Positions 16,638-57,202 are shown, counted from the stretch's first letter. The stretch: 64,000 nucleotides of DNA from an uncultured Acidobacteriota bacterium (GCA_964506795.1 CAZDMR010000006.1:11275-75274), one strand, 5' to 3'. A program made the numbers and translations. The notes: generated by a model from the letters alone, not told the origin.

Positions 16638-17179
16638 GGCAAAAAACCTCCTTTGATTATAATTGCACGGAATTTGAATGATCGCCGCAGCCGCGCGGCC
16701 TCTTCCGATTCCGGGCCTAACGGCCCGTCTGGCTACGGATTCTAAGCCAAAAGCGCAATCTTCCGTACACTCTCTTTTACAATGAGCAGGAAAATCCATC
16801 GCCTTGTTTTTCAGGGTTGAAGGAGAGCAATGCTTGGACACGGCCGTTGATGCGAATGGAAACCGTCAGCTCCGGCAATAGAATTAAAAATAAACCCGGA
16901 TTATTTATCAACAATTCCAGCGCTTAAGCATGCCATCCCGCGGCTGATACCTAGTCCGCGCGCCTCCTCCTCGCGCATCGATCTCGTCCCCAAGCCCCAT
17001 GCGCGCGGCATATCCTAATACTCGGACAGCCTCCTAGACGAAAATTCCCTCCTTAGCCGAAGTTTCATTGTCTCTTAATCGGAGCGTAACAATCCCCTGC
17101 AAAAATATGTCTGCTGTGAAAACCCCGTCTTTTGCCACGGCGGCTGTTGATCGCGATTCGGGAAGGAGGGTTGGCATTA

Positions 17180-17976: not shown

Positions 17977-19002
17977 ATGATAACTAAAAAACTTCGGCCG
18001 CACCGTTGCGGTATTGTTTTAGCCGGCGGAGACGGAAGACGCTTGCAGCCTTTCGTTCGCGACTTCCTGGGAGTCGATCTTCCAAAACAATATGTAAATT
18101 TTACAGGGAGCCGGTCGATGTTGGAACACACCTTTGATCGCGCGGAACGGCTGATATCCCTGGAAAAGATTTTTGCGGTGGTTGCGCGGAGCCACCTGCG
18201 ACAAGCCGAAGTCCGGAACCAGTTAAGCGCGAGGCCGCCCCGTACGATTGTCGTACAGCCGATGAACAAAGAAACCGTTCCTGGATTGCTGCTTCCCCTC
18301 ATGCACGCATTACTGCACTACCCGAATTGCACCGTCGCCGTCTTCCCTTCAGACCATTTTGTTCTGCAGGAAGACCTTTTCATGGCCTATGTAGAACAGG
18401 CCTTTGAAATGGTGGAAAGATATCCCTCTAAAATGGTGCTTCTTGGTGCGAAACCGGACGCTCCGGAACCTGAATATGGTTATGTTCTTCCGGATAACGA
18501 TGAGCTGGATTTCAATTCACCTTTCAAGAGAGTGAAGTCATTTATTGAAAAACCGCAGCCCCGGATCGCCGTTCAGCTCACGGCATTGGGCGCCTTGTGG
18601 AACACCATGGTTATGGTGTTCAAACCTGAATCCCTGCTTCATCTTGTCTCGATTGCGGCCCCGATGTTACATCGTTCCTTTCAAAGGATCTTCAGAGCCC
18701 TGGAAACCTCGCGGGAATCTATTGTCATTGAAGAGGTCTACCGGCACTTGCAGCCCATGAATTTTTCAAAGGACTTAATCGAATCCTTGAATATTCATTC
18801 CCGCAACCAGTTGTATGTGATTCCCATGAAAGACGTTTTATGGAGTGACTGGGGCTCTCAAGCGCGAATTGTCTCAGTCATTAAAAAGCTCCAATCATTG
18901 GATTGCCTGCCGCGTGCATTTTCCATTGATGATCTTCGAGACCGCCTCCCCGAGGTTTTGACGTCCGTGTCGGCGCAAATCCTTAACCCGGATTATTCAT
19001 GA
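17977..19002 (+). CDS. mannose-1-phosphate guanylyltransferase-like sugar nucleotidyltransferase (no PMI/cupin domain)
   Basis: Nucleotidyltransferase motif GIVLAGGDGRRLQPF...PKQY. AAAGGA lies 8 nt upstream of ATG 17977. The stop overlaps the next gene's start (ATGA). Confidence 0.7.
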   Translation: MITKKLRPHRCGIVLAGGDGRRLQPFVRDFLGVDLPKQYVNFTGSRSMLEHTFDRAERLISLEKIFAVVARSHLRQAEVRNQLSARPPRTIVVQPMNKETVPGLLLPLMHALLHYPNCTVAVFPSDHFVLQEDLFMAYVEQAFEMVERYPSKMVLLGAKPDAPEPEYGYVLPDNDELDFNSPFKRVKSFIEKPQPRIAVQLTALGALWNTMVMVFKPESLLHLVSIAAPMLHRSFQRIFRALETSRESIVIEEVYRHLQPMNFSKDLIESLNIHSRNQLYVIPMKDVLWSDWGSQARIVSVIKKLQSLDCLPRAFSIDDLRDRLPEVLTSVSAQILNPDYS

Positions 19003-24237: not shown

Positions 24238-24335
24238 TTTAACCCGGATTATTCACGAGCGTTCGCGGCGAGGCGGCTTCGAAAGCTGTCGAGCAACAGT
24301 AGGCGCCCCGCGGCATAAGCATTATGAACAGCCCA
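24238..24335. repeat. MITE/REP-like dispersed repeat, degenerate copy (R1)
   Basis: TTTAACCCGGATTATTCACGAGCGTTCGCGGCGAGGCGGC matches the left end of the full element at 53088..53270 (core plus the GCGAGGCGGC block). Confidence 0.5.
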
Positions 24336-24387
24336 AGTCAAGAAAAAGGCCGGAGGGGACACGCGAAGCGGTGGATTCCGTCCTCTG

Positions 24388-27168: not shown

Positions 27169-27374
27169 AGTTCATTCCTTTCTTGTAATCAGATTTGCAA
27201 TAAATCCTTCTGCGTTTTCGCCTTTGCGTCCAAGTCGTCGCAGAGCGTTAAACTATAAGCGCGCTTCCCTCGCAGAAAAGCACCTAACCTGGATTATTTC
27301 ATTGATCTCTTACCACCGCCGTTGATGGGGGCATGGCCGCGGCGCCTTGTTATGAATCCTATGGAAAACCTGAG

Positions 27375-27810: not shown

Positions 27811-28665
27811 TCAGAATCCAGCCGCTTTTCTCACGCCCAGCATTACCGGAACCGGCCGATGAGCCTTGTCAGACGGGCTGTTGAGCGTCCGCATTTCCTT
27901 GCCCGGTTCCTCTATCAACATGATGCTGCTGCCGCCGCCGTCGAGGTTGATGGATTGGGAACACCCGTGAGATCGAAGGATTTGCGCAAGTTCGTATAGC
28001 GTCACTCCTTCGCTGAAACCCCGTTGGCGCCCATCCACCACAACCAGCAGGAGCCAGGCGCCGCTCTCGTCGTATCCCAGCGCAGTTCTCGGGTGCAGAG
28101 CCCGATCCGCCCTGTCCGGCACGATCCGGGAATCCACTAAAAGCGGAGAAAACCAATCGGAAACAGCTTCCGCCACCGAATCGCCCGTCCCGGGATTTCC
28201 GATGTGAGGCCGCCCCGAGGAATCGAGCCAAAAAGCAGTTCGGCCGCTTTCCACAGGACTGATTGTGGCGCCTTGGGAAACCACCATTCCATGGACATTC
28301 ACCGGGAGGCCTTCAAACCACGCCGGCACGCTGCCCTTATCCTCGTTCAAGCCGGAAAAAGCATTTGCATTGACGGCTGCCAACGCCTGAAACTTCCTGA
28401 ATAAGTCCGCCGGTTTGGCCAATTGACTTTCGGCCGGCCCGGCAGCGTCGGGATCATCTGCTGGAAGTGCTACTACTTCAATCTGTTCGGCCTCAAGAGA
28501 GACTTTCAGAAAATGCATTCTAAGCGGCCGGGGAGATGTACGGATTTCAGTCCAACAAATCAACGCGCCGGGGCTGTCCGGAAACAAATCCAAAGCATCC
28601 TGGTCGCACCCGGCGCAGCATACTAATAAAATGAAGATCGCCGTTCCCGCAAAAACTCTTTTCAT
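27811..28665 (-). CDS. phosphodiester glycosidase family protein (NAGPA-like, DUF2233), lipoprotein
   Basis: NLDGGGSS motif. N-terminal signal with Cys cluster (LLVCCAGC). SD AGGGGA upstream. Confidence 0.7.
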   Translation of the reverse strand: MKRVFAGTAIFILLVCCAGCDQDALDLFPDSPGALICWTEIRTSPRPLRMHFLKVSLEAEQIEVVALPADDPDAAGPAESQLAKPADLFRKFQALAAVNANAFSGLNEDKGSVPAWFEGLPVNVHGMVVSQGATISPVESGRTAFWLDSSGRPHIGNPGTGDSVAEAVSDWFSPLLVDSRIVPDRADRALHPRTALGYDESGAWLLLVVVDGRQRGFSEGVTLYELAQILRSHGCSQSINLDGGGSSIMLIEEPGKEMRTLNSPSDKAHRPVPVMLGVRKAAGF

Positions 28666-29491
28666 TAGAATCCCCTGCTTATTCCCGATTTGCCAGTGAA
28701 TGACAACTGTCTGTTGCTAAACTCGGCTTGCCGGCTTAAAACTGAATTCATCGTTGGGTTCCTGAATCAATGAAACCGTATTCGAGAGGCCTACCGCACC
28801 GTAAAACGAATCTCGTCCAAGACGGTGCCGTCCTCTTGCTCGATTGAAAGTCTATAATCTCCAGGCCGCGGTTTCCATAGGCGGCCGCTTCCGGCCGGGC
28901 CAAGTTCCGCATCATTCAGCTTTAACAGCATCGAGGCCTTTGCGCCCTTGACGGTGAACGTCACGCGCTGCCGCTCACCCGGAATATCGGGATCGATTGC
29001 GATCACCATGTCGTCCGCCGAACTTGTGATGCGAGGGATCACGCCGCGGCGGCTCAACGGAAGGCAAAAACTCAACTCCGCGGGCCGATACCCCCTTGGA
29101 CGTGCGGGCTTTTTGAAAGGGCCGCCCTGCGTGCAACTTCGCCATGACTTCCCGCCAAACGGGCGCCGCGCACGAGACGCGGGATATCCTCGCTCCATTC
29201 CGGTTCAACCGGCATGCCCAGCAGCATGCGCACTGCGTCAGAATCTTCTGCAATCATAAGCCGCCCGAGCGCATCGCTGCGCTCCGTCGAGAATCCCATT
29301 CTTGTGCCCTGAAAGTTGGGCCGCGACCGCAGCATGCTTAGAGCCGTCCTACATTCTTGCTCCGCATTCGGGATACCCTTAGCGCGATCCGGTACACCAA
29401 GCCAATCAATCACAGCCGAGCTCGGCCACAGATTTGGCTCTATTGCAATACTGTCCAGCATAGTCGACCGGGCCGCTCCGTATCGCGACAG
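28647..29491. repeat. diverged segmental duplicate (copy A) of the pbpC 3' end plus an internal A2M segment
   Basis: 28647-~29165 aligns to 37856-~38440: near-identical over the first ~145 nt, about 85-88% over the coding part, with one ~50-nt indel. ~29165-29491 aligns to 40851-41178 inside the A2M gene. Confidence 0.8.
28791..29461 (-). pseudogene. remnant of alpha-2-macroglobulin / PbpC operon (internal deletion, frameshifts)
   Basis: ORFs 28791..29198 and 28975..29253 translate to PbpC C-terminal sequence (PVWREVMAKLHAGRPF..., ...YRLSIEQEDGTVLDEIRFTVR). ORF 29072..29461 translates to an A2M segment (IEPNLWPSSAVIDWLG...). The frames are discontinuous. Confidence 0.7.
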
Positions 29492-31839: not shown

Positions 31840-33546
31840 ATGCAGACAAAAAAAAAGCCACCGGAAAAAAGGGCGCAGGAACTTCAGCGGAAGAACAAAG
31901 AACTTCGGCTTCGGCTTGCGGAGGCGGAAGAAACTCTGCGGGCCATCCACGAAGGCGAAGTGGATGCCGTGGTGGTATCCGGGAGGAAAGGCGAACAGAT
32001 TTATTCGCTTGTGGGCGCCGATTCCATTTACCGCCTGATTGTGGAGACCATGAGAGAGGCCGCTTTTATGGTCTCTTTGGAGGGGATAATTCTGTTCTGC
32101 AACGCACAGTTCGGCGAATTCGTCAAACAGCCGATGGAGCGCATCCTCGGCCGGCCTCTGCGGGAATTCGTTAGTCGGGACGACCGCTCTGCTTCCGACT
32201 CGCTGCTGGCGCAAGCCCGGAATCATCCCGTCAAGGATCGGTTGGTTTTTTCCGATGCCGGCGGTAAAGCTAAGCCAGCGCATATTTCCGCCGGCGTTCT
32301 GGATCATCAGGACGGTCCGAGTATCTGCATAGTGGCCACAGACCTGAGCGACCTTGAAAGCTCGTCGAAATTGATTCGTCAACTTTGCGACCAGCGGGAG
32401 GAATTGAACCGGCAGCGCGCTCAGCTGGAAGCGATTTTTAAATACTTACCGGTAGGCATCATAATCGCCGAGTCGCCGTCCGGAAAAATCGTCTTGAGCA
32501 ATGAAAGAGTCGAACAGATCTGGAAGCACGAAAAATTCTCCCAGCCGGAATGCAAAAGCGAGTACGACAAGTACAAAGGATTCCACGCGAACGGCCAGCC
32601 CTATCTTTCCCATGAATGGCCTCTCGCCCGGACTATTGCTTCCGGGGAGAGAGTCCTGCAGGAAGAGGTACGATTTCAGAGGGGCGACGTTTCGTTCGGC
32701 TGGATGTCTATAAACTCGGCCCCAATCCGCGGAAACGACGGGAAAATCATAATGGGCATGGTTGCTTTTACCGACATAACCGCGCGCAAGCAGGCCGAGG
32801 AAGAACTCCTTAGGATGAATGAAGCACTCGAGCGCCGTGTCGCTGAGCGGACCAAAGAGGTTCAACAGCGGGCGGACGAACTGCGAGCGCTGGCTGCTCA
32901 ACTGATTCGCTCAGAGCAAGAAGAGCGCAGCAGCTTGGCGCGGATACTTCATGATCATATCCAGCAGCTCATCGTGGCCGGGCAGTTCCAGTTGGAATAT
33001 ATCAGACAGCGCAGGGATATGGGATTTGAAGAATTGCAGCAAGAAATACAGCAGGCGAACAATATTCTGGACGAAGCATTGGAAGCGTCCCGTTCTTTGG
33101 CCGTCGATCTGTACCCTCCTGCGCTTCACAAAGGCGGATTGATCCAGGCGCTGAAATGGCTTGCCGTCCGCATGCGGGGAAAATACTACTTCACCGTCAA
33201 TCTCGGCGTGGCGGATGATGCAGAGCCGACAAAGGATGAACTGCGGTTTTTCCTCTTTGATTGCGCGAGAGAGTTGCTTCTTAATGCTGTAAAGCACTCC
33301 GGTGTGCGGGAGGCGGACATCGATCTTTCGCGAACCAACAAAAACACAATCCAAATGATCGTGCGCGACCTGGGCAAGGGATTCGATATTGAAAAGTTTC
33401 AGAATCGGAATCCGGAAGAGTCCACTTTCGGCCTGTTCAGCATTCAACAGCGCTTGATATATATGGGAGGCCGGATAGAGATAAAAAGTGTGCCCGGAAA
33501 GGGTACCACTGTCATGCTGGTCGCACCGGATCACCTGATCAGCTAA
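31840..33546 (+). CDS. PAS-domain sensor histidine kinase (HisKA_3 / NarL-partner type), cytoplasmic
   Basis: N-terminal coiled coil, two PAS-like regions, HisKA_3 His box (LHDHIQQLIVAG) and a HATPase_c domain. Starts 11 nt after kaiB2. Confidence 0.85.
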   Translation: MQTKKKPPEKRAQELQRKNKELRLRLAEAEETLRAIHEGEVDAVVVSGRKGEQIYSLVGADSIYRLIVETMREAAFMVSLEGIILFCNAQFGEFVKQPMERILGRPLREFVSRDDRSASDSLLAQARNHPVKDRLVFSDAGGKAKPAHISAGVLDHQDGPSICIVATDLSDLESSSKLIRQLCDQREELNRQRAQLEAIFKYLPVGIIIAESPSGKIVLSNERVEQIWKHEKFSQPECKSEYDKYKGFHANGQPYLSHEWPLARTIASGERVLQEEVRFQRGDVSFGWMSINSAPIRGNDGKIIMGMVAFTDITARKQAEEELLRMNEALERRVAERTKEVQQRADELRALAAQLIRSEQEERSSLARILHDHIQQLIVAGQFQLEYIRQRRDMGFEELQQEIQQANNILDEALEASRSLAVDLYPPALHKGGLIQALKWLAVRMRGKYYFTVNLGVADDAEPTKDELRFFLFDCARELLLNAVKHSGVREADIDLSRTNKNTIQMIVRDLGKGFDIEKFQNRNPEESTFGLFSIQQRLIYMGGRIEIKSVPGKGTTVMLVAPDHLIS

Positions 33547-33822
33547 TTCGCATTTCTCCCCGGCTTCCATGGCGAGGCGGCCCAGACGGGCATGCATGCA
33601 AGGCGCGCGGCCGCACAGTTCCGCAGTCGTATCCGGCAGGACATCGCGCAACGCGACCGGGCGCAACATCATGGACACGCCCGGATCCTCCGTAACAAGC
33701 ATTTCCGATATCGCCAACCTGGTGAATGAAAGCCAAATTTTCCGGGCATATTCTGTAACGTACAAGAGAGGGCGTCGGTCTATAGCCATAGAGGATGACA
33801 TAAACTGAAAAGGAGCACTGTA

Positions 33823-37999: not shown

Positions 38000-40126
38000 C
38001 TACCGCACCGTAAAACGAATTTCGTCCAAGACGGTGCCGTCCTCTTGCTCGATTGAAAGCCTATAAGCGCCCAACTGAGGCTCCCATAATCGGTCGCCTT
38101 CGGCGGGGCCGAGAGCGGCGCCATTGAGTTTAAGAATTATGGAAGCGTTTGCGCCTTTAACGGAGAGCGGCACACGCTGCCGCTCCCGCGGAATATCGGG
38201 ATCGATTGCAATCACCATGCCGTCCGCCGGACTTGTGATGCGCGGGATCTCGCCGCGGGAGCCAACGGCAACAACGCGCTGCGTCATCGTATCCCCCAAG
38301 AACCATTCGCTCCGCGGCGGCTCAACGGGAGGCGAAAACTCAACGGGGCCGGCCGATACTCCCTTCGGCGCGCGGGGCGCTTGAAAAGGCCGCCCTGCGT
38401 GCAATTCCGCCATGACTTCCTGCCAGACAGGCGCGGCGCCCGTTACGCCGCTCACATCGTGCATCGAATCGCCTTCAAAATTTCCAACCCATACGGCAAC
38501 CGTGAAGAGCCTGGAAAACCCCACGCACCAGTTGTCGCGCATGTCTTTGCTGGTTCCGGTCTTGGCTGCGCTCCAGTATGGAGTGTTGAGATAGTTGGCA
38601 AGGCCGAAAGTCACGGTTCGAGCCGCGCGGTCGCTTAAGATATCGTCAATGATAAAACTGGCGTCCTCCGACATTACGCGCCGCTCCGCAGCCGCGCCGC
38701 CGGTCTGCAGGCGAATCGGCGTCCAGCGCCCTCCCCGCGCAAGGGCGCGGTACGCCTGCGCCTGTTCCCAAAGGCTCACTTCGGCCGAACCCAGCGCCAG
38801 GGAATATCCGTAGAATTCCGCGCTTTCGGTGATACCCAAATAACCAAGCCTGCATAACCGGTCGCGGAATGCGTCGACGCCTACCAGCATCAGAGCGCGC
38901 ACGGCGGGGATATTCAAGGAACCCCCGAGGGCCGTGCGGACGCTCACCAGTCCTTTGTAATCCTGCTCATAATCCTGCGGATGATAGAGTCCGCTCGCGG
39001 TTTCAAGATTTAGAGGAGCATCTTCCAGCAAAGAAGCCGCGGTTAGATAACGCCGTTCCAGCGCAATTCCGTACAGGAACGGTTTCAGCGTCGAGCCGGC
39101 TTGCCGCCTTGCCCGCACGCCGTCAACCTCGCCTGCGCTTGACTGAGGGCCGGCCGAACCGACATAGGCAAGCACTTCGCCGCTGTCATTGTCGACCACA
39201 AGGACGGCTCCGTCGCGAACGTTGCGCCCCTCAAGGCCGGAAAGATGCCGGCTCAGTATATCCCGCGCCAGCCGTTGCGTGCGTCCATCCAGCGTGGTGT
39301 GGACGCGCGCCCCCGGCTTTTTGGCTAACATGCGCGCCACATGCGGGGCCATCGGGATTGACAAATCCTCCGCGGCAGGCCGCGCAAAGAGATCGGCCGC
39401 CGCGCCGCGAATAGCTTCGCAGCTTATAGGCAGTCCTCGCGATGCGGCTCTTGCGCAAGCTCGCTCCACAATGCGTTCTTTTGCCGCATTCGGAGCCGGC
39501 AGCAAAGCGGCCAGCACGAGGCTTTCAGCCAGATTGAGCCCGGACGGCGCTTTGTCGGCGAGCAGCCGGGCGGCGGCGCCGATCCCTTGAAGTTCCCCGC
39601 GATAGCCGAGCAAATTCAGATATGCCTCGAGAATCTGCTCCTTGCTCCAGCGAGCTTCCAGCCGCTGCGCGGCCCTCATTTGAGCGCACTTGCGCTTCAG
39701 CGCGGAACTCTCACGCCTCGCCGGCACTCCCGCATCGATCAGAGCCGCGAGCTGCATGGTAATGGTGCTGCCGCCCCGGATGCGCCTGTGGATGACGTAA
39801 TCCTTAACCGCGCCGATCATGCCGAGCCAGTCTACGCCGGAGTGACTCCAGAATCGCCGGTCCTCGCCGTCGATAACGGCTTCCACAAGCGCCGGCGAAA
39901 CTGCCTCCAACTCGACCCATTCGAAGCGCCTCACGCCGTAGTTCACGCGCACGCTGTCGAGCGGATCCCCGTGCCGGTCGAGGACATAGGCTTCCGAAGG
40001 CACCCATCTTGATTTCACGGCCTCAAATTCGGGGACATTGGGATACGGCCGAAAGACCATCACCGCAATACCGGCGGCAACAGCGACGCCGGCAATCATC
40101 AGGATTGGACCAAACCGCCGTATCAT
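38000..40126 (-). CDS. pbpC: penicillin-binding protein 1C (transglycosylase GT51 + transpeptidase + PbpC C-terminal domain)
   Basis: GT51 motifs (EDRRFWSHSGVD, RGGSTITMQLA), a transpeptidase region and the PbpC-specific C-terminal domain. Its start overlaps the A2M stop. Confidence 0.9.
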   Translation of the reverse strand: MIRRFGPILMIAGVAVAAGIAVMVFRPYPNVPEFEAVKSRWVPSEAYVLDRHGDPLDSVRVNYGVRRFEWVELEAVSPALVEAVIDGEDRRFWSHSGVDWLGMIGAVKDYVIHRRIRGGSTITMQLAALIDAGVPARRESSALKRKCAQMRAAQRLEARWSKEQILEAYLNLLGYRGELQGIGAAARLLADKAPSGLNLAESLVLAALLPAPNAAKERIVERACARAASRGLPISCEAIRGAAADLFARPAAEDLSIPMAPHVARMLAKKPGARVHTTLDGRTQRLARDILSRHLSGLEGRNVRDGAVLVVDNDSGEVLAYVGSAGPQSSAGEVDGVRARRQAGSTLKPFLYGIALERRYLTAASLLEDAPLNLETASGLYHPQDYEQDYKGLVSVRTALGGSLNIPAVRALMLVGVDAFRDRLCRLGYLGITESAEFYGYSLALGSAEVSLWEQAQAYRALARGGRWTPIRLQTGGAAAERRVMSEDASFIIDDILSDRAARTVTFGLANYLNTPYWSAAKTGTSKDMRDNWCVGFSRLFTVAVWVGNFEGDSMHDVSGVTGAAPVWQEVMAELHAGRPFQAPRAPKGVSAGPVEFSPPVEPPRSEWFLGDTMTQRVVAVGSRGEIPRITSPADGMVIAIDPDIPRERQRVPLSVKGANASIILKLNGAALGPAEGDRLWEPQLGAYRLSIEQEDGTVLDEIRFTVR

Positions 40127-43100
40127 TTTACAGGCTCCACGACCATCGCCGCGTTTGGAAATTCACCGAGCATTTCCGGCGCATATAACGCTTCGACGCG
40201 CGTCGCAGGCAGAAGGAACGTTCCGGGATTGTTGAGACGCACGGTGTACTCTACTGTCCACTTCCCTTTGGGGACAAACCGGTAGTAAGCGCGGAACGCT
40301 TCGAAGCGGCGCTCTTCAAATGCCGGCCAAACCCAGCCCTCCCGGCGCTCCCCCCGCTGCAGGATCCGAGATTGCCCGCCGAGACCCGAACCCAAAGCAG
40401 TCGCTCCGCCTGGGATGGGATCGTCAACGACGACCCAACTCATGTCGGATTGTGCTTCAAGTTCCAGCCGCACCCGCGCCACGTCGCCCGCAGTCCAGCG
40501 GCCCTTGACTGCCTGAGCGACCGGAATTACCGCCCGGCTTATTTTGTAGCCGGTCGACAAAGGAGCATCGAGGGGCAAAGCCGCAGTCGTTCGCAGCATG
40601 AGCCAGGGACTTCCCGCCCCTTGATGTTTCACATCGAGTGTGCCGCGCCCGGCATCCCAGGGCAAAACAATAGTGCCCGCGCCGGCCGCACGCGGCCAGG
40701 TTACGGATTTCTTCTCCGCGGCATATTGGACGGAGGTGGCGCCTGAAACAGGAGTCGATTCGAAAGCGGCGGAAAACTTTTCAAGAGCGAGCACTCCCCA
40801 TGCATTGGCGACCGTCGTATTCCAATGCCCGCGCTGCTGCCTGCCGAGAGCGCCGCGCACGAGACGCGGGATATCTTCACGCCAGTCCGGTTCCCCCAGC
40901 ACCGCCAGCAGCATGCGCACGGCGTTGGAATCTTCGGAAATCATAAGCCACCAGAGGGCATCGCTGCGCTCCGTCGAGAATCCCATAATCGTACCCTGAA
41001 AGTTAAGCCGCGATCGCAGGATGCTTAGAGCCGTCCGGCGTTCTTCCGGCGCATTCGGGATGCCCTGAACACGCTCCAGGATACCAAGCCAATCAATCAC
41101 GGCCGAGGTCGGCCACAGATTCGGCTCTATTGTAATGCTGTCCAGCATATCGGCCCGGGCCGCGCCGTATCGCGACAGGGCATCGATCGCCGCAACTTTG
41201 CGAATGGCAAGATCGGCGGTCGGCAAAGCCGAGCGCCGCACAATTCGGCCTTCAACAAAACCGGTCAGCGCCTGTATAAGGCCCTGCCTTAGGGAATAAG
41301 GAATTTCCCATCCCGCTTCCTGCCCGATCGCAAGCACATAAGCCGTCAGTGTGTCCTCTCCCTCAAGCCATCTTGTGGGAAAGTACTTGAGCAAACCATC
41401 CCGGTCCGTATAGGCGGGAAGCCGGTTCATCCACGAATTCCACCAGCTGCGATCACGCAGCGCAACTGCCCGCGAGATGCTCTGCTCGAGGCAGACGTAC
41501 GAATAGAACTGCATATATTCGCGGACGCCTTCCAGATTATCCCCGAGCTTAGCGCGGAGGTCGACCTCCAGGCCGCCGCGTCCGGAAATAGAGCCCTTCG
41601 GCCGCTCGGCCGGCATTGACAAAGGCCCTGTCAATTGCGCAATGGTTGCTTGATAGGTCCGCACCGGATAGGCTGGAATCACGTTTTGGACGACTTTCAA
41701 CGAATCCAGCACGGTCCCGTTCGGTCCCGTTGCATTGACCGTCCAGGTTATCTTTTCATAGCCGACCGGAGCCTCAAACCGCCACACGACCTTGCGCGCT
41801 TCGCCGGCTCGCAGCGCGAGGGCTGCGTTCAATGCTTGCGGTGAAGATGCCGGCTTTGACGGGACCGTTTCGGCATCCAATTCGAGTTGAATCTCGCGGT
41901 CGGTCGTATTGCGCACGGTAAAGGAAGCCGCATAGCGGTCGCCTTCCCGCACCAGGGGCGGCAGGCCCGACATTAAGATCAAATCCTGAGTCGTCGCAAT
42001 GGCCGCCGTGCCCGTGCCGAAAAGCTGGGCGCCGCTGTGCGCGATCGCGGCAATGCGAAACGACGTCATGGAATCGTTCAGGGGGACCGTTACCATTGCC
42101 TCGCCGTTGGCATCCAACACAACGCGCGCGCGCCACATAAGCAGCGTGTCGAAGAGCTCGCGCGCGACTTCTCTTCCGCCGCCTCCGCCGTGGAGCACCG
42201 CCTTCTTGCCGTAATGCCTTTTTCCGACGACTTGCATCTGCGCTGTTGAAGTCCAGACTTCAAGCCCCCTTATGCCCATCATGGCTTCGAGCAGAGCCCA
42301 GCTGCGGTTGGGCATGAGCTCAAGGAGCGCTTCGTCCACGGCGGCGATGGCGACTTCCGTTCCTGCAGGCAGCCTGCCGCCGTTGGCGCGCGTCACTTTG
42401 ATACGCACCTTGGCTTTCTCCCGCACGCGGTATGTTGTTTGTTCCGGAGTGACGCGCACATCCAGGCGATGAGGCTTCCAGCCGACGCGAATCTCGGCCA
42501 TCCCCAGACGATAAGCCGGCTTGTTCAAATCGACGAGCGCGGTGATGTCGGCGTCGCCTGGCCCGTTACGTGCCTTTGAACTCTCGCTGCGGGCCACGCG
42601 GCCGCGCACTGCAAGAACCGATACGAAAACGTTTGGAGCAAAATTGTCCTTGATAGGCACTTCGATTCTTGGCTCGCGGCCGTTCAGTTTGGTGACAAAA
42701 CTCTCAAGGATTCCTTCGCGCTCAACGGTGACGAGCGCCGTCGCCGACCGGAAGGGCATGCGCACCTGAAAGCGGGCCGTCTGACCGCTTTCGTATTCCT
42801 TTTCCTCCGGCAATAGATCCATGCGGTCGCCCGACGTGCCGCCGAACCACCAGTCGTCCTCTCCGACAACCCAGATAGACGCTGTTGCGAGCGCGGGATT
42901 GCCGGCCTTGTCCTGCGTTTCAGCCCGCAGCAGTATTTCTCCCGATACCCCGGGCGCAATTTCACAAACGAGAAGGCCCTGCGCATTGGTTTTTCCGGCG
43001 CAGCTCGTCGGGAGTTTTTTGGTCTCGGTTATTGTGCTGTAAGCATAGAAACCGCCTATCAGCCGCTTGCGGTAGGAATATGCTTTTGCTTGAAAAAGGT

Positions 43101-45957
43101 TTACGGCAATAGGCTGTCCCGCAATCGGACGGCCTTCCAGATCAAGCGCCACGACGCGAAAGCGCATCTGTTTTTCGCTCGCCGCCCATCCCTCGCGCCG
43201 GATGCCGAGACTTATCGCAGACGGCAAGAGCCGAACGCGTCCGGTGCTCGTCAGGAGTTCGCCGTTTGGGTCGGCATATTCGAGCTCTGCCAAAAGTTGC
43301 GCCGGTTTCTCCATAACGGGCAGATTGGGAACCGTCACGCGCGCAACGCCGTGCGCATCTAGCGTCAAAGGCATCACCCTGGCCTTCATCGCGCCGGGCG
43401 CTGCAGAATCCGCATCCTGTGAACCGGACGCTTCGCCGCCTTCAAAATCATAGTCGTACCGCGAGCCGCTTGACTCGACAACGCCCTCTTTGACCTCGGA
43501 GCCCCCGAACTGAAAATCCTCATAGCCGGCATATCGCATCGGCCGCGGCTCGACGATCGCCCGCAGAGTCACAGGAAGGTTGGAAGCGCCTCCGCCCGAC
43601 ATATAGGCGACCTGTAAATCGAGCGTGACCTCACGTGAATTTACTAACGGCTTAGCGGGTCCCTGCACCGCCGCGCGCATGGTTGGGAGGCGGAACTCTT
43701 CTACCTTAAAACCGCCGCTCCGGCGCTTCACGCCCCCGGAAAATTCCACGGCAATGGCATAGTCCCCGAGCTTCGCCTCTTTCGGTATCGTCCACGCGTG
43801 CTCCGCTATCCCGTCGGCGCCGAACGATGCGGTAAGCTCGTAATTTTGGTCGCTTCCCATGTGAGAGATGACGACTTTGCGTGTTGCAGCCTCGTCCTGA
43901 GGAATTCCGATACCGTCGCTGTGATGGCGCCTGATGAAATGCTTCATCGAAACGGTTTCGCCGGCGCGGAACAGCGGACGATCAAGCACGGTGTGCACGA
44001 TATCCGCTCTCCACTCCGACCCGATCTGAAGGCCGAAATTGTATGGTCGGATGCCCTCGTTCCAGCTCGATATGGCAAAACTGAAGTCTTCGCCCTTCTG
44101 AGCCGTCACCATCAATGGGCCCCCGCCCAACTTTCCACAGTACTCGCCCGAATGCGGTTCCCCCAAGGAACTCTCGATCAGGGCGATTCCATCGCTATCG
44201 GTGCGGCCCTGCCAGAGAAATGAACCGTAGCAGTAATTAATGATATAAACTGTGGCGTCCCGGACGGGATTGCCGTCATCGAGGCGCGTCACCCAGACGC
44301 GGGATTTTTCCCGGCCCCATTTAAAATGCACGGCCATATTAGTAACCAGCGCTGATGTTGCAACGTAGCGGACTTCGTCGCCTCCGAGCAGTGAAGCGCC
44401 GAGGGTGCGGCTTTCCAGTTCTACAACGTAGAAGCCGGGATCTTTCAGCGGGATACCCACGACTTCAGTTTCGCTGCTCCCCAGCGCTTTATTTATCTTG
44501 AAGGGCGTTGTTTCTTCCCAACTGTGGAACACCGAAGCGGCGCCTGTCTCTGTTCTAAAGACGGAGCGTTTTTTTTCATCGTCAAAGATCCATGTGCCCC
44601 TGGACTCGGCCGCCTCTTTGACCCGCCACAGCCAGTCTGCAATATCGGCCGGATCCTTGCCTAGGCGCATGATTCTCCCTGGGATTTCGATCCGGCGCGC
44701 CGGCAGTTCCGCTTCGACATTGCGAAGGGTGACAGGCAGGATGCCGCCTTCCTTCAATTCAAGGATGCCGAATTCCCCCGAAAATTTGGCAAGCGGCGGA
44801 TATTCATCCACGCGGAGCTCGAGCGGAAACCGCGCGGCATTCTCAAGCGGACGCCCGGCATCGTCGACGATTCCTTCAGGCAGGCTCACCATGACCGTGC
44901 TGGAAGCCGGGAAAGGACCTTTGAAATTCAGAAATTCCAAGGCCGGTTCCTGCCCCGCCGCAGTCTCGTCCGGCTTGTAAACTGTCCCGTCGGGCGCCGT
45001 AAGACGCACGCCCGCCACCTTCGCGCGCGGCACGGGAGCGCTGAACCGCACCGTGATCGGAAGCATCGGCATGCATCCGGCGCGCGCGTTGACGCGCGAG
45101 CATTCCACCCGGGCCGTAAAGGCCGGCCGCACACGGAAAACGAGCCTTTGATCCTGTGCGGTCGCGGGGCCCCCTGTCGCTGCGATTCCGGCGCCCCAGA
45201 CCAGATCCACGCGCGCCGCGGAGGGGAAGCGCCTCCTGCATCGGCCGACAAGGATCGCTGCCTCCGCCGCTTCGAGATTGCGGTCCCGGACCCGCGCCTG
45301 CGACGTGCGGCCGCTTTTCCAGAGCAGCTCATAATACGCGTAGCCCAGCTCCGCGCGCTGCGCGAGTATTTGCTTGCGGGCATTGCCCGCCAAGATTTCA
45401 ATCGGGATCCTTTCGGACAACTCGCCAATCACGAAATAGGCATTCCGCCGGACAGTCGCCGGGAGCGCGGGCGCATCAAGCTTGAGCAGGAACACCTGCT
45501 CCTCGTCAATCTCCCGCCAGCCGTCCCGAGGAAAGGACGCGATAATTGCCGGCCCGCCCGTGTCAAAAAGAAACTTGCGCTTTCCCGCAACGGGCGTTCC
45601 GTCAAGGGATGCTAGTCCATCTTTCATAATGAATTCGCATCGCACTCCGGCGGGCAGATCTCTGTCAAAATCATAAATCCAGTTGCGTCCGTCCGCCCAT
45701 CGTCCTTTGCCGGGCTCCGGGCAGTTGACGGTAAAAGGATCGGAAAGACGCGGATCGCCGAGCGCAACCATCGGCAACGTAAACCGCGCGGTTGCCTGCC
45801 GTACTCTTTTGACGGTTCCCTCAGGAGAAAAGAATTCCACCTGGGCGGCCTGTGCGCCCAGGCTTGAAACGCAGAAGCCCGCGCCGGCCAACGAGGCAAA
45901 CAGAATTCCCGTCACGCAGCGCAGGCGGCGCGCAAAACGATTCTTTATGGCCGACAT
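40123..45957 (-). CDS. yfhM: bacterial alpha-2-macroglobulin family protein (YfhM/ECAM-like), thioester-containing
   Basis: 1944-aa secreted protein with MG-domain architecture. Thioester motif CLEQ is encoded at ~41483-41494. The A2M-pbpC pairing is the classic operon arrangement. Confidence 0.9.
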   Translation of the reverse strand: MSAIKNRFARRLRCVTGILFASLAGAGFCVSSLGAQAAQVEFFSPEGTVKRVRQATARFTLPMVALGDPRLSDPFTVNCPEPGKGRWADGRNWIYDFDRDLPAGVRCEFIMKDGLASLDGTPVAGKRKFLFDTGGPAIIASFPRDGWREIDEEQVFLLKLDAPALPATVRRNAYFVIGELSERIPIEILAGNARKQILAQRAELGYAYYELLWKSGRTSQARVRDRNLEAAEAAILVGRCRRRFPSAARVDLVWGAGIAATGGPATAQDQRLVFRVRPAFTARVECSRVNARAGCMPMLPITVRFSAPVPRAKVAGVRLTAPDGTVYKPDETAAGQEPALEFLNFKGPFPASSTVMVSLPEGIVDDAGRPLENAARFPLELRVDEYPPLAKFSGEFGILELKEGGILPVTLRNVEAELPARRIEIPGRIMRLGKDPADIADWLWRVKEAAESRGTWIFDDEKKRSVFRTETGAASVFHSWEETTPFKINKALGSSETEVVGIPLKDPGFYVVELESRTLGASLLGGDEVRYVATSALVTNMAVHFKWGREKSRVWVTRLDDGNPVRDATVYIINYCYGSFLWQGRTDSDGIALIESSLGEPHSGEYCGKLGGGPLMVTAQKGEDFSFAISSWNEGIRPYNFGLQIGSEWRADIVHTVLDRPLFRAGETVSMKHFIRRHHSDGIGIPQDEAATRKVVISHMGSDQNYELTASFGADGIAEHAWTIPKEAKLGDYAIAVEFSGGVKRRSGGFKVEEFRLPTMRAAVQGPAKPLVNSREVTLDLQVAYMSGGGASNLPVTLRAIVEPRPMRYAGYEDFQFGGSEVKEGVVESSGSRYDYDFEGGEASGSQDADSAAPGAMKARVMPLTLDAHGVARVTVPNLPVMEKPAQLLAELEYADPNGELLTSTGRVRLLPSAISLGIRREGWAASEKQMRFRVVALDLEGRPIAGQPIAVNLFQAKAYSYRKRLIGGFYAYSTITETKKLPTSCAGKTNAQGLLVCEIAPGVSGEILLRAETQDKAGNPALATASIWVVGEDDWWFGGTSGDRMDLLPEEKEYESGQTARFQVRMPFRSATALVTVEREGILESFVTKLNGREPRIEVPIKDNFAPNVFVSVLAVRGRVARSESSKARNGPGDADITALVDLNKPAYRLGMAEIRVGWKPHRLDVRVTPEQTTYRVREKAKVRIKVTRANGGRLPAGTEVAIAAVDEALLELMPNRSWALLEAMMGIRGLEVWTSTAQMQVVGKRHYGKKAVLHGGGGGREVARELFDTLLMWRARVVLDANGEAMVTVPLNDSMTSFRIAAIAHSGAQLFGTGTAAIATTQDLILMSGLPPLVREGDRYAASFTVRNTTDREIQLELDAETVPSKPASSPQALNAALALRAGEARKVVWRFEAPVGYEKITWTVNATGPNGTVLDSLKVVQNVIPAYPVRTYQATIAQLTGPLSMPAERPKGSISGRGGLEVDLRAKLGDNLEGVREYMQFYSYVCLEQSISRAVALRDRSWWNSWMNRLPAYTDRDGLLKYFPTRWLEGEDTLTAYVLAIGQEAGWEIPYSLRQGLIQALTGFVEGRIVRRSALPTADLAIRKVAAIDALSRYGAARADMLDSITIEPNLWPTSAVIDWLGILERVQGIPNAPEERRTALSILRSRLNFQGTIMGFSTERSDALWWLMISEDSNAVRMLLAVLGEPDWREDIPRLVRGALGRQQRGHWNTTVANAWGVLALEKFSAAFESTPVSGATSVQYAAEKKSVTWPRAAGAGTIVLPWDAGRGTLDVKHQGAGSPWLMLRTTAALPLDAPLSTGYKISRAVIPVAQAVKGRWTAGDVARVRLELEAQSDMSWVVVDDPIPGGATALGSGLGGQSRILQRGERREGWVWPAFEERRFEAFRAYYRFVPKGKWTVEYTVRLNNPGTFLLPATRVEALYAPEMLGEFPNAAMVVEPVK

Positions 45958-49090: not shown

Positions 49091-49218
49091 GGCCGGCGGA
49101 CGGATGCATATAGGCAGACGAAAGCGGCGCGTCCGAAAACCAGGAATCGGCTATACATCATCCGGTCCCCTATGGATTCAGAACATCGCCGCCTCTTAAC
49201 CCGGAGTATCCATGCCGA

Positions 49219-49749
49219 TTATCGCCTGCGCAATTTATCGCTCGCACCGGCAACGCGGCGCAAACCGGGCCTGCCGACGCCCGGTCGGTCCGGAGAATCA
49301 ATCAGGTCGAAAGCCACCGCAGCTCGCGCGACGGGCAAAATCCTGAGGGCTTCTTCCAATTTATCGAGAGACGCGAGCTGATCCTGATTTAATAATTCCC
49401 GGAGCTGTAATTGAAATTTTTGCCTCTGGCCCTCTATCTGATCCCGCAAAGCGGAAATTCGTTCCTTCAATGCAGCGATTGTCTCGGAATTTGGATCGCT
49501 TTTTTGGTTTTCTTCGCGCAGCGCTTTGGTCTTGGCGGCCAATTCTTGAACCAGCGGCCTGTGCGCATCTCGCATCGAAGCCCGTAGGCTCCGCATGTCC
49601 GAAATCTGCGCATCGGATAAATCCAGGTAATTCTTCAACGCCTGAACCTGCAAAACTCCTTCCCCGAGGATTCCCTGCCGGGGACCCTGCTGCGCCCATA
49701 CTATTGCTGAGAATAAAACGCCGGAAAGCAGCAAGCCTGTGAATTTCAT
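49219..49749 (-). CDS. Spy/CpxP-family periplasmic protein (LTXXQ motifs)
   Basis: Signal peptide. Two LTxxQ-like motifs (LDLSDAQ, LNQDQLASL). GGAGGA SD. The C-terminal ~30 aa are low-complexity. Confidence 0.55.
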   Translation of the reverse strand: MKFTGLLLSGVLFSAIVWAQQGPRQGILGEGVLQVQALKNYLDLSDAQISDMRSLRASMRDAHRPLVQELAAKTKALREENQKSDPNSETIAALKERISALRDQIEGQRQKFQLQLRELLNQDQLASLDKLEEALRILPVARAAVAFDLIDSPDRPGVGRPGLRRVAGASDKLRRR

Positions 49750-52407: not shown

Positions 52408-53028
52408 TTAATGGAAACGCAGTATGAAGCTGCCGTGCCATAGCTGGTATAGGCCCATTGCCGCAAGGGCAATCGACGACAAGCCTATCAAAGCCTTCCG
52501 GATGCGCGGCCCCAACGTTCCTGCGGCGGTAAACAGCAGGATCATTGCTATCATGGCGGCGATCATTGTCGAATAAAAACCCAGGATCAAAGCCACTCCG
52601 TTCATTGCGGAATCGCGCCATCCTTCGAGCACCATCGGACCGAGGATTATGCTCCATCCCAGGTAGGGATTCGGATTCAGCCAGTTTATAAGGACAGCTT
52701 TCACCAAGTTGTTCGGCCGGGATTCTAGGCGCGTTTCATTTTCCGATCGGAAGCCGCGCCAGCATTTCCACGCTTCGAAAGCCAGGTACAGAATGAAAAT
52801 CCCGCCCAGAAGCTGCAAATAATGTACAAGCTTTGGGGGCACCCGGCTCAAAGCCGTCAGGACAAGCACGGCGATGGGACCGTCGCTCAACAGCGGCGCG
52901 AAGGCGACCGGCAGCGCATGGCGGCGGTCGCGGCTTACGGATTGTGACATGAGGTACATCGAGAGGGGGCCGGGCGTGACGGCCGCGGCGAAGCCATAGG
53001 TTATTCCGGGGATCAGGTATGCCAGCAT
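52408..53028 (-). CDS. LysE/RhtB-family amino-acid exporter
   Basis: The family N-terminus TPGP is present. Start chosen at MLAYLIPGITYGF. The longer ORF start at 53088 sits inside the MITE. Confidence 0.7.
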   Translation of the reverse strand: MLAYLIPGITYGFAAAVTPGPLSMYLMSQSVSRDRRHALPVAFAPLLSDGPIAVLVLTALSRVPPKLVHYLQLLGGIFILYLAFEAWKCWRGFRSENETRLESRPNNLVKAVLINWLNPNPYLGWSIILGPMVLEGWRDSAMNGVALILGFYSTMIAAMIAMILLFTAAGTLGPRIRKALIGLSSIALAAMGLYQLWHGSFILRFH

Positions 53029-53087
53029 AGGTTTATTCGCTGACGAATAGATATACCACGGCCCCTGCAGGATACGGTCAGCGGCCA

Positions 53088-53270
53088 TTAACCCGAATTA
53101 TTCATGAGGATTCGTAGCGAGGCGGCGTAGACCGGCATGGATACAAGGCGCGCGACCGAGAGCCCCGCAGGCGTACTCGACAGTACGTCGAGGAGCTCGA
53201 AGGAGCGCAACGCAGGAAACATGCCTGGATCCGGCGCCGCAGTAGAAGCTTCACGAATAATCCGGGTTAA
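53088..53270. mobile_element. MITE-like element (R2), complete copy with ~20-bp terminal inverted repeats
   Basis: Left end is TTAACCCGAATTATTCATGAGG. Right end is CTTCACGAATAATCCGGGTTAA, its reverse complement. The 183-bp element exactly fills the gap between two convergent/divergent genes. Confidence 0.7.
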
Positions 53271-53279
53271 GCCGCCTGT

Positions 53280-53915
53280 TTATTGTTTGTTATAAACTAT
53301 TTTCTGAACGGTACTGCGGCTGGACATTCCGTTCGTTACCGTTTGATTAGATATTTTCAGAGTCAGGACCTTCCCGTCCTTGGAAAGAGAAAACTCCTTT
53401 TTGACTTCATTTTGGGTGGAAGTGGTTGTGGTTTTTGTCGAAATCGTAATCTTGTTTTTTTTCTGTTTTGCTTTTGTCTTTCGTTCCGATTTTTCCTGAG
53501 AATTAGGAACCGCCGTCTCTTGAACGGTATCTTTTCCGTCAAGCGTATAATTCTCAATGATGGGCATTTCCTTGCCGCCCATGTTCATAGTCGTGATAAT
53601 TTGTATTTCCTTCCCCGAATGCTTGATGACCATAGGCGGTGGCGGAGTATTCGCCGCCGGTTGTTTTGCATTTTGGCCGCCAGGCATCGGCCCGCCCATG
53701 CCGCCGCCGAAGCCGCCCATTCCACCCATCCCGCCCATGCCGCCGGGCATGATATCGTTAGGCGCTCCGAGACTTCGCATAAATTTAGGATGGGCGTCAC
53801 TTTGGTCCATGTCCTGAATCCACGTCCCCGAAAAATCAACCTGCGGGCTCTCCGCCCAAGCGCACATGACCATAAATAGGAGTATAAAACTGACTGCCGT
53901 TGCTAGTGGTTTCAT
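53280..53915 (-). CDS. secreted hypothetical protein with Gly/Met-rich low-complexity repeat (GMGGMGGMGGFGGGMGG)
   Basis: Signal peptide MKPLATAVSFILLFMVMCAWA with GAGAGGGA SD. A GM repeat is followed by a Thr/Lys-rich tail. Confidence 0.5.
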   Translation of the reverse strand: MKPLATAVSFILLFMVMCAWAESPQVDFSGTWIQDMDQSDAHPKFMRSLGAPNDIMPGGMGGMGGMGGFGGGMGGPMPGGQNAKQPAANTPPPPMVIKHSGKEIQIITTMNMGGKEMPIIENYTLDGKDTVQETAVPNSQEKSERKTKAKQKKNKITISTKTTTTSTQNEVKKEFSLSKDGKVLTLKISNQTVTNGMSSRSTVQKIVYNKQ

Positions 53916-53982
53916 GATCCCTCTCATCCGATGCATCTAATTCCTCTTGCTGATAAAGCGCAAACAAAATCTCTCCGGATAT

Positions 53983-54087
53983 CCGCATGAATCATTCATG
54001 AAGCTGCTATGGCGGCGAACACAGGAATTTCTACGGCGTCGCTTTGCTTCAGACCGCCTTTTTAGGAATCCTCATGAATAATTCGCG
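53983..54087. repeat. MITE-like element, short copy in inverted orientation (R6)
   Basis: Ends CCGCATGAATCATTCATGAAG ... CCTCATGAATAATTCGCG correspond to the R2 termini in reverse orientation. Confidence 0.55.
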
Positions 54088-54345
54088 TCAGCGGCAATAT
54101 CCGAAAATTTTTCCTTTCTATATTATATACTCCAAAAACAATTAAACCGCATTCGAAATACACACGGCTCATGCTTATGAAGCGCGCGTTCGCTCCGCCA
54201 AGAAATTCGAGAAAATGGAGAATTTCCGCTTCACGACGGCGCGTTGAAAACAAAACGACCGAAATCCCATTCCCGACGTTCGCAATTACGCGCAGGCCTA
54301 TGATAGATTAGTCTGGCTTTTATCCTGGTAAATTCCCGGAGGAAA

Positions 54346-56379: not shown

Positions 56380-56669
56380 ATATGAACCTCCCATGCAGCA
56401 TGGTGATGCGCCTGAGTTCAATATTGGTTGCCGTCTGATTGACCTAACCCGGATTCAGGTTAAACATAACGGCTGCGCACTCCCGCCGTAAAGCGGAAAA
56501 TGGATTTAAGCACTCTTTTTATATTCCGATGTCCATTCATGGTTTCCGTAAAGAGGCTTCCGCAACAACCCTCTCCTTCCCATTCAAGGCGGCCGATCTC
56601 CTTTCCCCAATCCAAGGGCCTCCGGAGAGAATCCCGGCATCCATGCGGCTGTTCCACCTATCCGTCGGT

Positions 56670-57131
56670 TTATGTCTGCCTTTTTGTTTTTTCGTGCCCG
56701 CCGGGATCCGCTTCGGAAAGTGTTCCCGCGCCGATCATGATGGTCAGTTCCAGGTGCGGCTTTTCAAATTTTTTCCAGACCAGCGGCCCGTGTTTTACGC
56801 CTTTGGGCACATAAATAGCCGACGTGCGGTTGATTACCACGGGACGGCCGTCAATGCCGATCTCAATTTCTCCGCCGAGATCTTCGGGATTTTGCGGATC
56901 CGTTCCGATATGCAATATGATTTCGTCGTAATCGTGGGTATGTTCGCCGATGTGCGGATTCGGATCGGGCATTCCCAATACCCACCCCGTCTCGATGTAC
57001 ATCTTTGCGCCCGGAACCAGATTGGAGCTCATCAGCGTCATTGCGGGGATCCGGCCTTTAACCTCCATTTTCGGCGTCACTTCATACGCGGGCTTCTGGA
57101 CCACGTATTTTTTATAATCGAATGCAGCCAT
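56670..57131 (-). CDS. cupin-domain protein
   Basis: Cupin motifs (GEHTHDYDEIILHIG ... GVKHGP). GGAGGAG SD. Confidence 0.6.
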   Translation of the reverse strand: MAAFDYKKYVVQKPAYEVTPKMEVKGRIPAMTLMSSNLVPGAKMYIETGWVLGMPDPNPHIGEHTHDYDEIILHIGTDPQNPEDLGGEIEIGIDGRPVVINRTSAIYVPKGVKHGPLVWKKFEKPHLELTIMIGAGTLSEADPGGHEKTKRQT

Positions 57132-57145
57132 TTTGTCGCTCCTCC

Positions 57146-57176
57146 TTAACCCGGATTATCCATGAAGAATCCGCGT
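57146..57176. repeat. MITE/REP-like core copy (R5)
   Basis: TTAACCCGGATTATCCATGAAGAATCCGCG lies between the cupin start and the glgP stop. Confidence 0.5.
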
Positions 57177-57202
57177 TAGAAAATCCGCCAAAGGAAAAAA
57201 CA

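Follow-up and report, generated by a model that had tools for sequence, protein, structure and literature searches.

What is the short repeat that recurs along a 64,000-nt stretch of DNA from an uncultured Acidobacteriota bacterium (GCA_964506795.1, CAZDMR010000006.1:11275-75274; this whole stretch is called the window in what follows, and positions are counted from its first letter), and which part of it is conserved? A first-pass annotation had described a dispersed family resembling both MITEs (miniature inverted-repeat transposable elements) and repetitive extragenic palindromes (REPs), with at least eight copies and one complete element at 53088-53270. We find that the repeats are very probably the MITE family of an IS1380-type transposon that targets TTAA. 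As a MITE family it is ordinary; what is unusual is that its ends span phyla, that its interior is conserved above the ends, and that the apex of this interior is common to repeats that use other transposases.

The dispersed family is real. Its 20-mer core TTAACCCGGATTATTCATGA matches the window seven times at ≤3 mismatches, against 0.00 times in 100 dinucleotide-preserving shuffles, and about 11 copies or remnants are recognised in the 64 kb. Only the copy at 53088-53270 is intact; it is 183 bp long (175 bp between its duplications) and complete, with the inverted termini of about 20 nt that had been described, TTAACCCGAATTATTCATGA and TCACGAATAATCCGGGTTAA, the second of which reads TTAACCCGGATTATTCGTGA on the other strand. 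The rest are deleted or decayed. Every copy in the first-pass list (its R6, R3, R1, R4 and R5, and the partial cores) was recovered with nhmmer or with a covariance model, although of the partial cores (56444-56463, 16891-16926 and 27284-27305) the last is only a weak and degenerate match. Two copies had been missed: a decayed long one with another class of end (33543-33698) and a degenerate solo end (49196-49215). The internal blocks reported as shared between copies, GCGAGGCGGC and GAGCGCAACGCAG, are indeed shared.

The nature of the 20-mer is seen from its occurrences elsewhere. A scan of one genome per species with TTAACCCGRATTATYCRYGA gave at least 118 loci, where ~17 chance matches are expected in 596 Gb (an arithmetic estimate); they lie in many genomes and many gene contexts, so the window hits are neither chance similarities nor the operator of a single gene family. 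In the loci listed (numbered with the prefix L) the 20-mer is the terminus of elements that differ in interior sequence and length. Among the matches listed there are 75 paired ends, and element lengths fall into classes of 26-30, ~50-120, 162-191 (the largest class) and 223-247 bp, with four elements of 1676-1769 bp; in the 26-30-bp class two ends abut as a near-perfect palindrome. From the same matches 215 ends were collected without requiring TTAA. The four bases outside CCCG were T, T, A and A in 185-199 of these, and positions farther out were random. Flanks were TTAA on both sides in 37 pairs of the matches listed, and flanks other than TTAA recur as direct, not inverted, repeats (GTAA/GTAA, CTAT/CTAT and CTAG/CTAG, with CTAA/CTAA in L241). 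Because the flank is conserved as TTAA and the non-palindromic flanks are directly repeated, the 20-mer is a 4-bp TTAA target-site duplication followed by a 16-bp terminal inverted repeat (TIR), CCCGGATTATTCATGA. The duplication that the first-pass annotation proposed to look for is thus present, on both sides of the window copy and, with the other tetranucleotides, in related loci.

The same ends bound complete transposons. The four elements of 1676-1769 bp (L011, L020, L031 and L101) each hold one open reading frame (ORF) of 456-490 aa, and a partial autonomous element is present in L032. The ORFs match NCBIfam NF033539 (IS1380 family transposase) at 364-374 bits (373.8 and 363.5; cut-off 180) and Pfam PF13701 at E about 1e-124 (3.5e-124). 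The IS1380 family, as described at ISfinder, has a length of ~1.55-2.0 kb, ends that begin CC and a 4-5-bp duplication; the autonomous elements fit, with their 1676-1769 bp, ends reading CCCGG… and 4-bp duplication. The likeness to insertion sequences (ISs) of this family, such as ISEcp1, IS1380 and IS1247, lies in these autonomous relatives (NF033539 transposase, ~1.7 kb, CC ends, 4-bp duplication), whereas the window elements have no transposase. The latter are short (<~500 bp) and non-coding, and combine a 16-bp TIR and a 4-bp TTAA duplication with ends identical to those of the transposase-encoding elements, which bears out the earlier likening to MITEs. An IS1380-family DDE transposase encoded elsewhere would bind both ends, excise the element and paste it into a TTAA, which would be duplicated.

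These results bear directly on the suggestion that the repeats are operators, or sites for a nucleoid protein, that regulate adjacent genes. Copies do lie near gene starts and stops, and the inner ends of the TIRs are palindromic in the mini-elements. The same 20-mer, however, bounds transposase genes, and the spacing between half-sites runs from 0 to ~1750 bp among the matches listed. The genes next to window copies are of unrelated kinds (LysE, citrate synthase, glycogen phosphorylase, a DNA-alkylation repair enzyme, PAP2, radical-SAM), and no gene family recurs beside the repeats at the 120 apex-bearing loci listed. The supposed TTATTCATGAATAA half-site is the inner end of the TIR, and only the abutting of two TIRs in mini-elements makes it palindromic. 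A binding-site identity is extremely unlikely on this evidence.

The autonomous partner also decides against integron attC sites, whether in a cassette array or in an attC cluster without an integrase (CALIN). Across the right end of 53088-53270 and its flank the sequence is GTTAAGC, in agreement with the attC core GTTRRRY, and the elements are hairpins with extra-helical bases, as that idea would have it. But the copies lie in both orientations, scattered among housekeeping genes, with no same-orientation cassette array; what is conserved is a specific sequence of 16 bp and no 7-bp core; it is the target that is duplicated; and the same ends bound an IS1380 transposase gene. The attC reading is effectively refuted by orientation, context and autonomous partner, and its probability is negligible.

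Enzymes that share the CCCGGATTATTCATGA TIR are only 36-61% identical to one another, and those of this subgroup are <40% identical to any in the plasmid collection; a Mesorhizobium IS1380 member of 39% identity has ends reading CTAG followed by CCCGTCTTATGCACGA. Since transposases so divergent, the Mesorhizobium one included, keep similar ends, the combination of CCCGnnTTATnCAnGA and a YTAR target seems to be a family trait that evolves slowly.

IS1380 transposases have been taken as the prokaryotic outgroup of piggyBac (PMC10813416). Both groups have a TTAA target duplication and CCC…/…GGG ends, the hallmark of piggyBac, but the partner transposase here is IS1380 by NCBIfam and Pfam, and the hosts are bacterial where those of piggyBac are eukaryotic. 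Membership of the piggyBac superfamily was rejected on the assignment of the transposase, only the TTAA/CCC design of the ends being common to the two. An IS1380 subgroup with this end design offers a tractable bacterial model for its evolution.

A few points weigh against assigning the repeats to an IS1380-type transposon. No IS1380 transposase gene was found within the 64-kb window, so a cognate enzyme in this organism is putative. The four autonomous elements have no MITE interior, and their sub-terminal sequence is unrelated to it. Many host labels come from metagenome-assembled genomes (MAGs), in which mis-binning is possible. For the window copies no pair of filled and empty sites was obtained among the nearest LysE relatives examined, in which downstream synteny is kept and the gene upstream of LysE is different.

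Mobility is nevertheless suggested by another genome, in which nearly identical copies are dispersed. In this Pirellulaceae MAG, 10 copies of 96-100% identity, each bounded by TTAA or CTAG, lie in flanks that are 25% identical (the random level), and this pattern has the signature of a recent burst. The copies in our window, mutually divergent and mostly truncated, look like fossils. The ends as such were found in MAGs of about 15 phyla among the matches listed, labelled Planctomycetota, Acidobacteriota, Bacteroidota (including Balneolia and Rhodothermales), Gamma- and Zetaproteobacteria, Thermodesulfobacteriota, Myxococcota, Bdellovibrionota, Nitrospirota, Gemmatimonadota, Methylomirabilota, Binatia, Krumholzibacteriia, Leptospirales, Rubrobacteraceae, Clostridia and one 'archaeon' bin. 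The G+C content of the elements themselves ranges from 0.44 to 0.69 across loci, as it would if they had adapted to their hosts, and sequences differ between lineages, which argues for long residence over contamination. The plasmid collection had no match to the element by blastn, and viral contigs had a solo end only (IMG/VR, L123 8470-8489), where TTAA and TIR directly follow an ORF.

A second widespread MITE lineage has the same ends and a different interior of ~230 bp with conserved CAAATTTGGGT and GCTGCGAAATTT; it is found in Balneolia and other Bacteroidota (L012, L022, L033, L043, L044, L051, L067-L069, L071, L076, L081-L083, L109 and L110).

MITEs derived from ISs are well known in bacteria, for example Correia/NEMIS, RUP, Nezha, Chunjie and the MaeMITEs of Microcystis. 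Like them, the repeats described here are short, non-coding, TIR-bounded, flanked by duplications, dispersed between genes and able to form hairpins, and have ends in common with an autonomous IS. They differ in that the partner is IS1380 and in that the interior covaries across phyla and is conserved above the ends, which is atypical for MITEs. In the literature, searched mostly outside subscription journals and ISfinder, we found no IS1380-derived MITE and no relevant TIR or apex sequence; a literature search by sequence gave no match to the TIR, and for the apex it matched unrelated primers only.

The interior of the intact copy, which we call type-A, is a separately conserved long hairpin and no leftover of the transposase gene. 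Elements of the 175-191-bp class from seven phyla can be aligned over their full length (MAFFT; alignment A1), and RNAalifold folds them into one long hairpin of 56 pairs, with compensatory double changes at 31 of the 56. Cells of the alignment were paired in 91.9% of cases, against 75.8% in column shuffles and <43% with the partners slid by 1-3 columns; none of 500 shuffles matched the observed value in any of five measures. The conserved fold pairs each terminus with the other terminus, and the short CGAAT-N11-ATTCG hairpin of the first-pass annotation is not conserved. Loops are fixed amid stems that vary, GTnGCGAGG facing CGCAGYAG near the ends and CCGCAG-GCGTAC…GTACGTC-GAGG at the apex, where a G·T (G·U) pair is kept in 12 of the 15 sequences of A1. 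Covariation alone could arise without selection, through template-switch 'correction' of quasi-palindromes; such correction would erase the conserved asymmetric loops, not keep them. As single molecules the window copy folds to -84.4 kcal/mol as RNA (z = -7.6 against shuffles) and to -42.7 kcal/mol as DNA (z = -4.5).

The hairpin is also asymmetric between strands. With type-A elements oriented by sequence homology alone, the same (forward) strand folds better in all 10 lineages; the consensus energies are -71.6 and -49.8 kcal/mol for forward and reverse, and G·U pairs number 44 against 12 A·C mismatches. Under covariance model R1 the score of 53088-53270 is 160 bits for the + strand, against 75 bits for the - strand.

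Some other accounts of the interior were set aside. The autonomous elements found lack it, so that the MITE did not arise from them by deletion alone. In the Pirellulaceae copies a frame of 53 codons starts at an ATG in the TIR; a protein-coding interior was rejected because the frame of the window copy stops after 8 codons (an ORF of only 9 codons) and indels between lineages break it. A k-turn in the apex loop was rejected because the G·A/A·G register does not fit.

The apex occurs far beyond elements with these ends. A scan of metagenomes with the apex alone (GGCGTAY-N5-8-RTACGTCGAGG) gave at least 120 loci. With enough flank to judge, 97 of 113 listed matches are the tip of a hairpin with ≥12 further pairs, and the others resemble fortuitous matches within coding sequence. 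The CCCGGATTATTCATGA ends (end class TIR1) are present in no more than roughly one in ten of the apex matches listed. In a second end class (TIR2) the same interior is bounded by CTAG followed by CCCGCATTTCTCACCAGG, and the window copy at 33543 belongs here; in alignment A3 the intact window element and the TIR2 elements are 86-91% identical over the 138-nt interior, and their ends 44-72%. One TIR2 type-A element (L231 4768-4951) has, ~130 nt away at 4591-4636 on the - strand, a match to the Rfam Acido-Lenti-1 RNA (49.5 bits; gathering score 37).

Among the apex matches listed, another family has ends reading TACCRAnTTGCATTCAA (metagenome loci L191, L198, L205, L228, L233 and L156), and 3-bp direct duplications (TTA, TAA or TGA) flank it in 6 of 9 cases. 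A 3-bp TNA duplication with such ends is the style of IS5/Harbinger, which suggests that a second, IS5/Harbinger-like transposase superfamily may mobilise a related core. Further apex-bearing hairpin families with still other termini are present among these matches. Some apex matches form tandem arrays, two or three units long and with a period of 102-106 nt, that lie between housekeeping genes (for instance bioB/rapZ; downstream of dnaK; upstream of ilvD). In a set of 79 non-redundant apex-bearing hairpins, in which the G·T pair forced by the search had been neutralised beforehand, the more stable strand is the forward one in 70 under RNA parameters and in 71 under DNA parameters (p ≈ 1e-12). 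Purines make up 85% of its unpaired non-apical positions, against 60% overall.

These properties recall REPs, REP doublets forming hairpins (REPINs) and the clusters known as bacterial interspersed mosaic elements (BIMEs), and could mean that the repeats are single-stranded DNA hairpins mobilised by a REP-associated tyrosine transposase (RAYT; HUH/Y1), not by a DDE enzyme. In favour, the mismatches of the long interior hairpin are strand-specific; short tandem arrays of apex modules lie between housekeeping genes in the manner of BIME clusters; the repeats lie mostly downstream of genes, with no orientation bias; and REP super-families that span phyla have been described (PMC3733652). Against this, the ends of the elements are IS1380 ends with 4-bp duplications, and HUH transposition yields no duplication. 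The unpaired GTAG/CGTC tag is absent, the ends being CCCG…, the sub-terminal 'GTnG' varying and the CGTC of the apex being base-paired, and no Y1 gene recurs within 2.5 kb of the repeats at the 120 apex-bearing loci listed. As an account of the whole element it is very unlikely.

The comparison holds better for the interior than for the whole, and the earlier description as REP-like is to be divided accordingly: the TIR-bounded element does not fit the definition of a REP, while its interior hairpin behaves as one of the REP type. Like REP, BIME and REPIN units and GTAG/CGTC-tagged palindromes (PMC3733652), the interior hairpin and the apex repeats are intergenic, lie mostly downstream of genes and are found in many phyla, singly, as inverted dimers or in short arrays. 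The apex stem differs, having 7 bp with a conserved G·T where a REP stem has 8-9 bp and A-T pairs at its start; unit length is far greater, ~100-140 nt against 20-40 bp, and no RAYT association was seen. The REP concept is the closest analogue for the core, though by definition the elements are neither REPs nor REPINs.

Placement relative to genes, among the matches listed, favours 3' ends (62 faced, against 37 5' ends) and convergent over divergent contexts (9 against 4), as is typical of REPs and MITEs generally. No orientation relative to neighbouring genes is preferred, tandem contexts being 9 sense and 12 antisense overall (3/6 for type-A). The element contains no σ70-like promoter and no convincing terminator, so the promoters or terminators that the first-pass annotation thought the repeats might supply were not found. 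No protein family occurs in more than three loci within 2.5 kb, among the 120 apex-bearing loci listed. Rfam gave nothing at gathering score over the whole window and nothing relevant at E ≤ 10 over 52900-54300, and in ten apex-bearing loci it had no match to the hairpin.

A structured non-coding RNA gene, or a cis-regulatory RNA, with the inverted ends incidental, would account for the strong covariation of the interior, the conserved G·U in the apex stem, the 85% purine at unpaired positions of one strand and the greater stability of the forward strand under RNA parameters. The strand asymmetry is also present under DNA parameters, however, and the absence of an orientation bias, promoter, terminator, recurrent neighbour or Rfam match argues against a transcript, as does the window copy, which is antisense to both its neighbours. 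We consider an RNA as the primary identity unlikely. Since the mismatches are strand-specific and purine-rich and no transcriptional orientation is preferred, a core read as folded single-stranded DNA fits, and an RNA transcribed from a promoter of its own is less likely. Our best guess for the interior is a hairpin module resembling REPs, one strand of which would be read in folded form, either as single-stranded DNA or as RNA.

The palindromic arms would make such a hairpin an easy seed for MITEs: an end gained on one arm would be mirrored on the other, and several end classes on one core could thereby have arisen, because the arms mirror whatever end is acquired. Long hairpin repeats would then seed MITEs of different transposase superfamilies. 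Tentatively, the hairpin interior may itself be the functional unit, a previously undescribed class of structured nucleic-acid element that spans phyla, is read on one strand (folded single-stranded DNA or RNA) by a conserved factor of the host or of a mobile element, and has repeatedly been captured by unrelated mobile shells or had them built around it; this is possible but doubtful at present. Its outline would be a helix P1, an AAGG/AACGMAG loop, a helix P2, a GNR/GA loop and GGCGUAY-loop-RUACGUC with the fixed G·U(T), and the shells would be the two IS1380 end classes, the TNA-duplicating IS5/Harbinger-like MITE and the REP-like tandem arrays. If the core is functional, it is a new and widespread structured DNA or RNA element; if it has no function, it offers a clear case in which to study the seeding of new MITEs by palindromic repeats.

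The features of the intact copy, the other window copies and the tandem arrays are collected in Table 1.

Table 1. Parts of the intact element, other copies in the window, and tandem arrays of the apex module in metagenome loci
Feature	Position	Strand	Remarks
Left target-site duplication TTAA	53088..53091		TTAA present outside both ends
Left TIR CCCGAATTATTCATGA, end class TIR1	53092..53107	+	Same 16-mer ends 1.68-1.77-kb IS1380-family elements L011, L020, L031, L101
Type-A interior, long imperfect hairpin with purine-rich internal loops	53108..53250	+	Alignment A1, covariance model R1
Apex module GGCGTACTCGACAGTACGTCGAGG	53170..53193	+	7-bp stem, conserved G·T pair; GCA 5', GA-GG 3'
Right TIR, + strand reading TCACGAATAATCCGGG	53251..53266	-	
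Right target-site duplication TTAA	53267..53270		
103-bp type-A copy, internally deleted	24239..24341	+	R1 26.8 bits, E = 7e-7
~110-bp shortened copy, both TIRs degenerate	53982..54091	-	R1 26.3 bits
Decayed type-A copy	59957..~60122	+	nhmmer E = 1.8e-13; right boundary uncertain
Decayed type-A copy, second end class, CTAA then TTCGCATTTCTCCCCGG (near CCCGCATTTCTCACCAGG)	33543..33698	+	nhmmer E = 3.6e-12; aligned with TIR2-type elements in A3
Mini-palindrome, TTAA + 26 bp + TTAG	57146..57179		R1 21.3 and 18.6 bits on the two strands
20-bp remnant CTAA CCCGGATTCAGG TTAA	56444..56463		R1 10.7 bits, E = 0.04
Solo TTAA + TIR, 20/20 exact	18983..19002	+	
Degenerate end or mini-element, 3 mismatches in 20-mer	16891..16926		R1 6.8 bits (weak)
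Degenerate solo end, 3 mismatches	49196..49215	+	3 nt off stop of ORF 49219-49749
Very degenerate solo end CTAACCTGGATTATTTCATTGA	27284..27305	+	Marginal
Tandem arrays	L130 2946-3289; L175 1924-2157; L170 7838-8065; L230 619-852		REP/BIME-like clusters without recognisable transposon ends

At 24239-24341 the left TTAA and TIR are intact (one mismatch) and the right end is decayed; at 59957-~60122 the left TIR is kept without an adjoining TTAA, the apex is mutated and the right end is gone. In the mini-palindrome at 57146-57179 the 26 bp are two abutting TIR halves joined at TTCATGAA, and the same 26-bp class is present in L007, L016, L049 and L112. Both TIRs have this 8-bp TTCATGAA, a palindrome, at their inner edge, so its two copies in an element repeat each other in direct and in inverted orientation alike. 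The interior is probably lost by slippage between these copies, with mini-palindromes of 26 bp or solo ends as the outcome.

Nine of the 11 copy midpoints lie outside ORFs, though ORFs make up 87.8% of the window. The exceptions are a copy that overlaps the spuriously extended 5' end of the DNA-alkylation-repair ORF and a solo end within the final 20 nt of the nucleotidyl-transferase ORF. The genes that adjoin copies encode mutually unrelated products (LysE, a hypothetical protein, a B3/4-domain protein, citrate synthase, glycogen phosphorylase, the DNA-alkylation repair enzyme, nucleotidyl transferase, PAP2 and radical-SAM). The first-pass annotation had most copies immediately beside start or stop codons. 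The TAA of TTAA at 57147-57149 is the stop codon of ORF 56529-57149, and the TAA of CTAA at 33544-33546 is that of ORF 31840-33546. The proximity is best explained by a TTAA/YTAR target that contains TAA together with selection against insertion within genes, and copies are intergenic and beside stops for these reasons.

The apparent LysE start at the edge of the intact element is an artefact. Public records give the LysE-family ORF 52408-53088 (- strand) 226 aa and start it from an ATG where the TTAA of the element joins; homologues have 206-207 aa, so that the true start is likely to lie near 53031, and insertion of the element probably made the spurious upstream ATG. The statement that the element exactly fills an intergenic gap is thus in part a product of the over-extended ORF. 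An independent Logan assembly (SRR8556479) of the same LysE gene (L244 1-38) stops 38 nt into the element and illustrates that the repeat breaks short-read assemblies. The identification as an IS1380-type MITE family explains such assembly breaks and the over-extension of ORFs at TTAA-ATG junctions, and it accounts for a family of densely spaced repeats in bacteria of soil and sediment that have been little studied (Acidobacteriota, Planctomycetota, Bacteroidota and others).

The solo end at 18983-19002 supplies both the TGA stop of ORF 17956-19002 and the ATG of the PAP2 ORF 18999-19547; the ATGA stop/start overlap of the nucleotidyl-transferase and PAP2 ORFs thus falls within transposon-end sequence. 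Elsewhere in the window, at 38000-45957 on the - strand, lies a gene pair for an alpha-2-macroglobulin (1944 aa) and a PBP1c-type protein (708 aa), with ~60% G+C against ~53% elsewhere. Second-copy fragments of this pair, 82-88% identical and including a BiPBP_C-domain ORF at 28791-29198, are found at 28647-29462 and look like a decayed duplicate of it.

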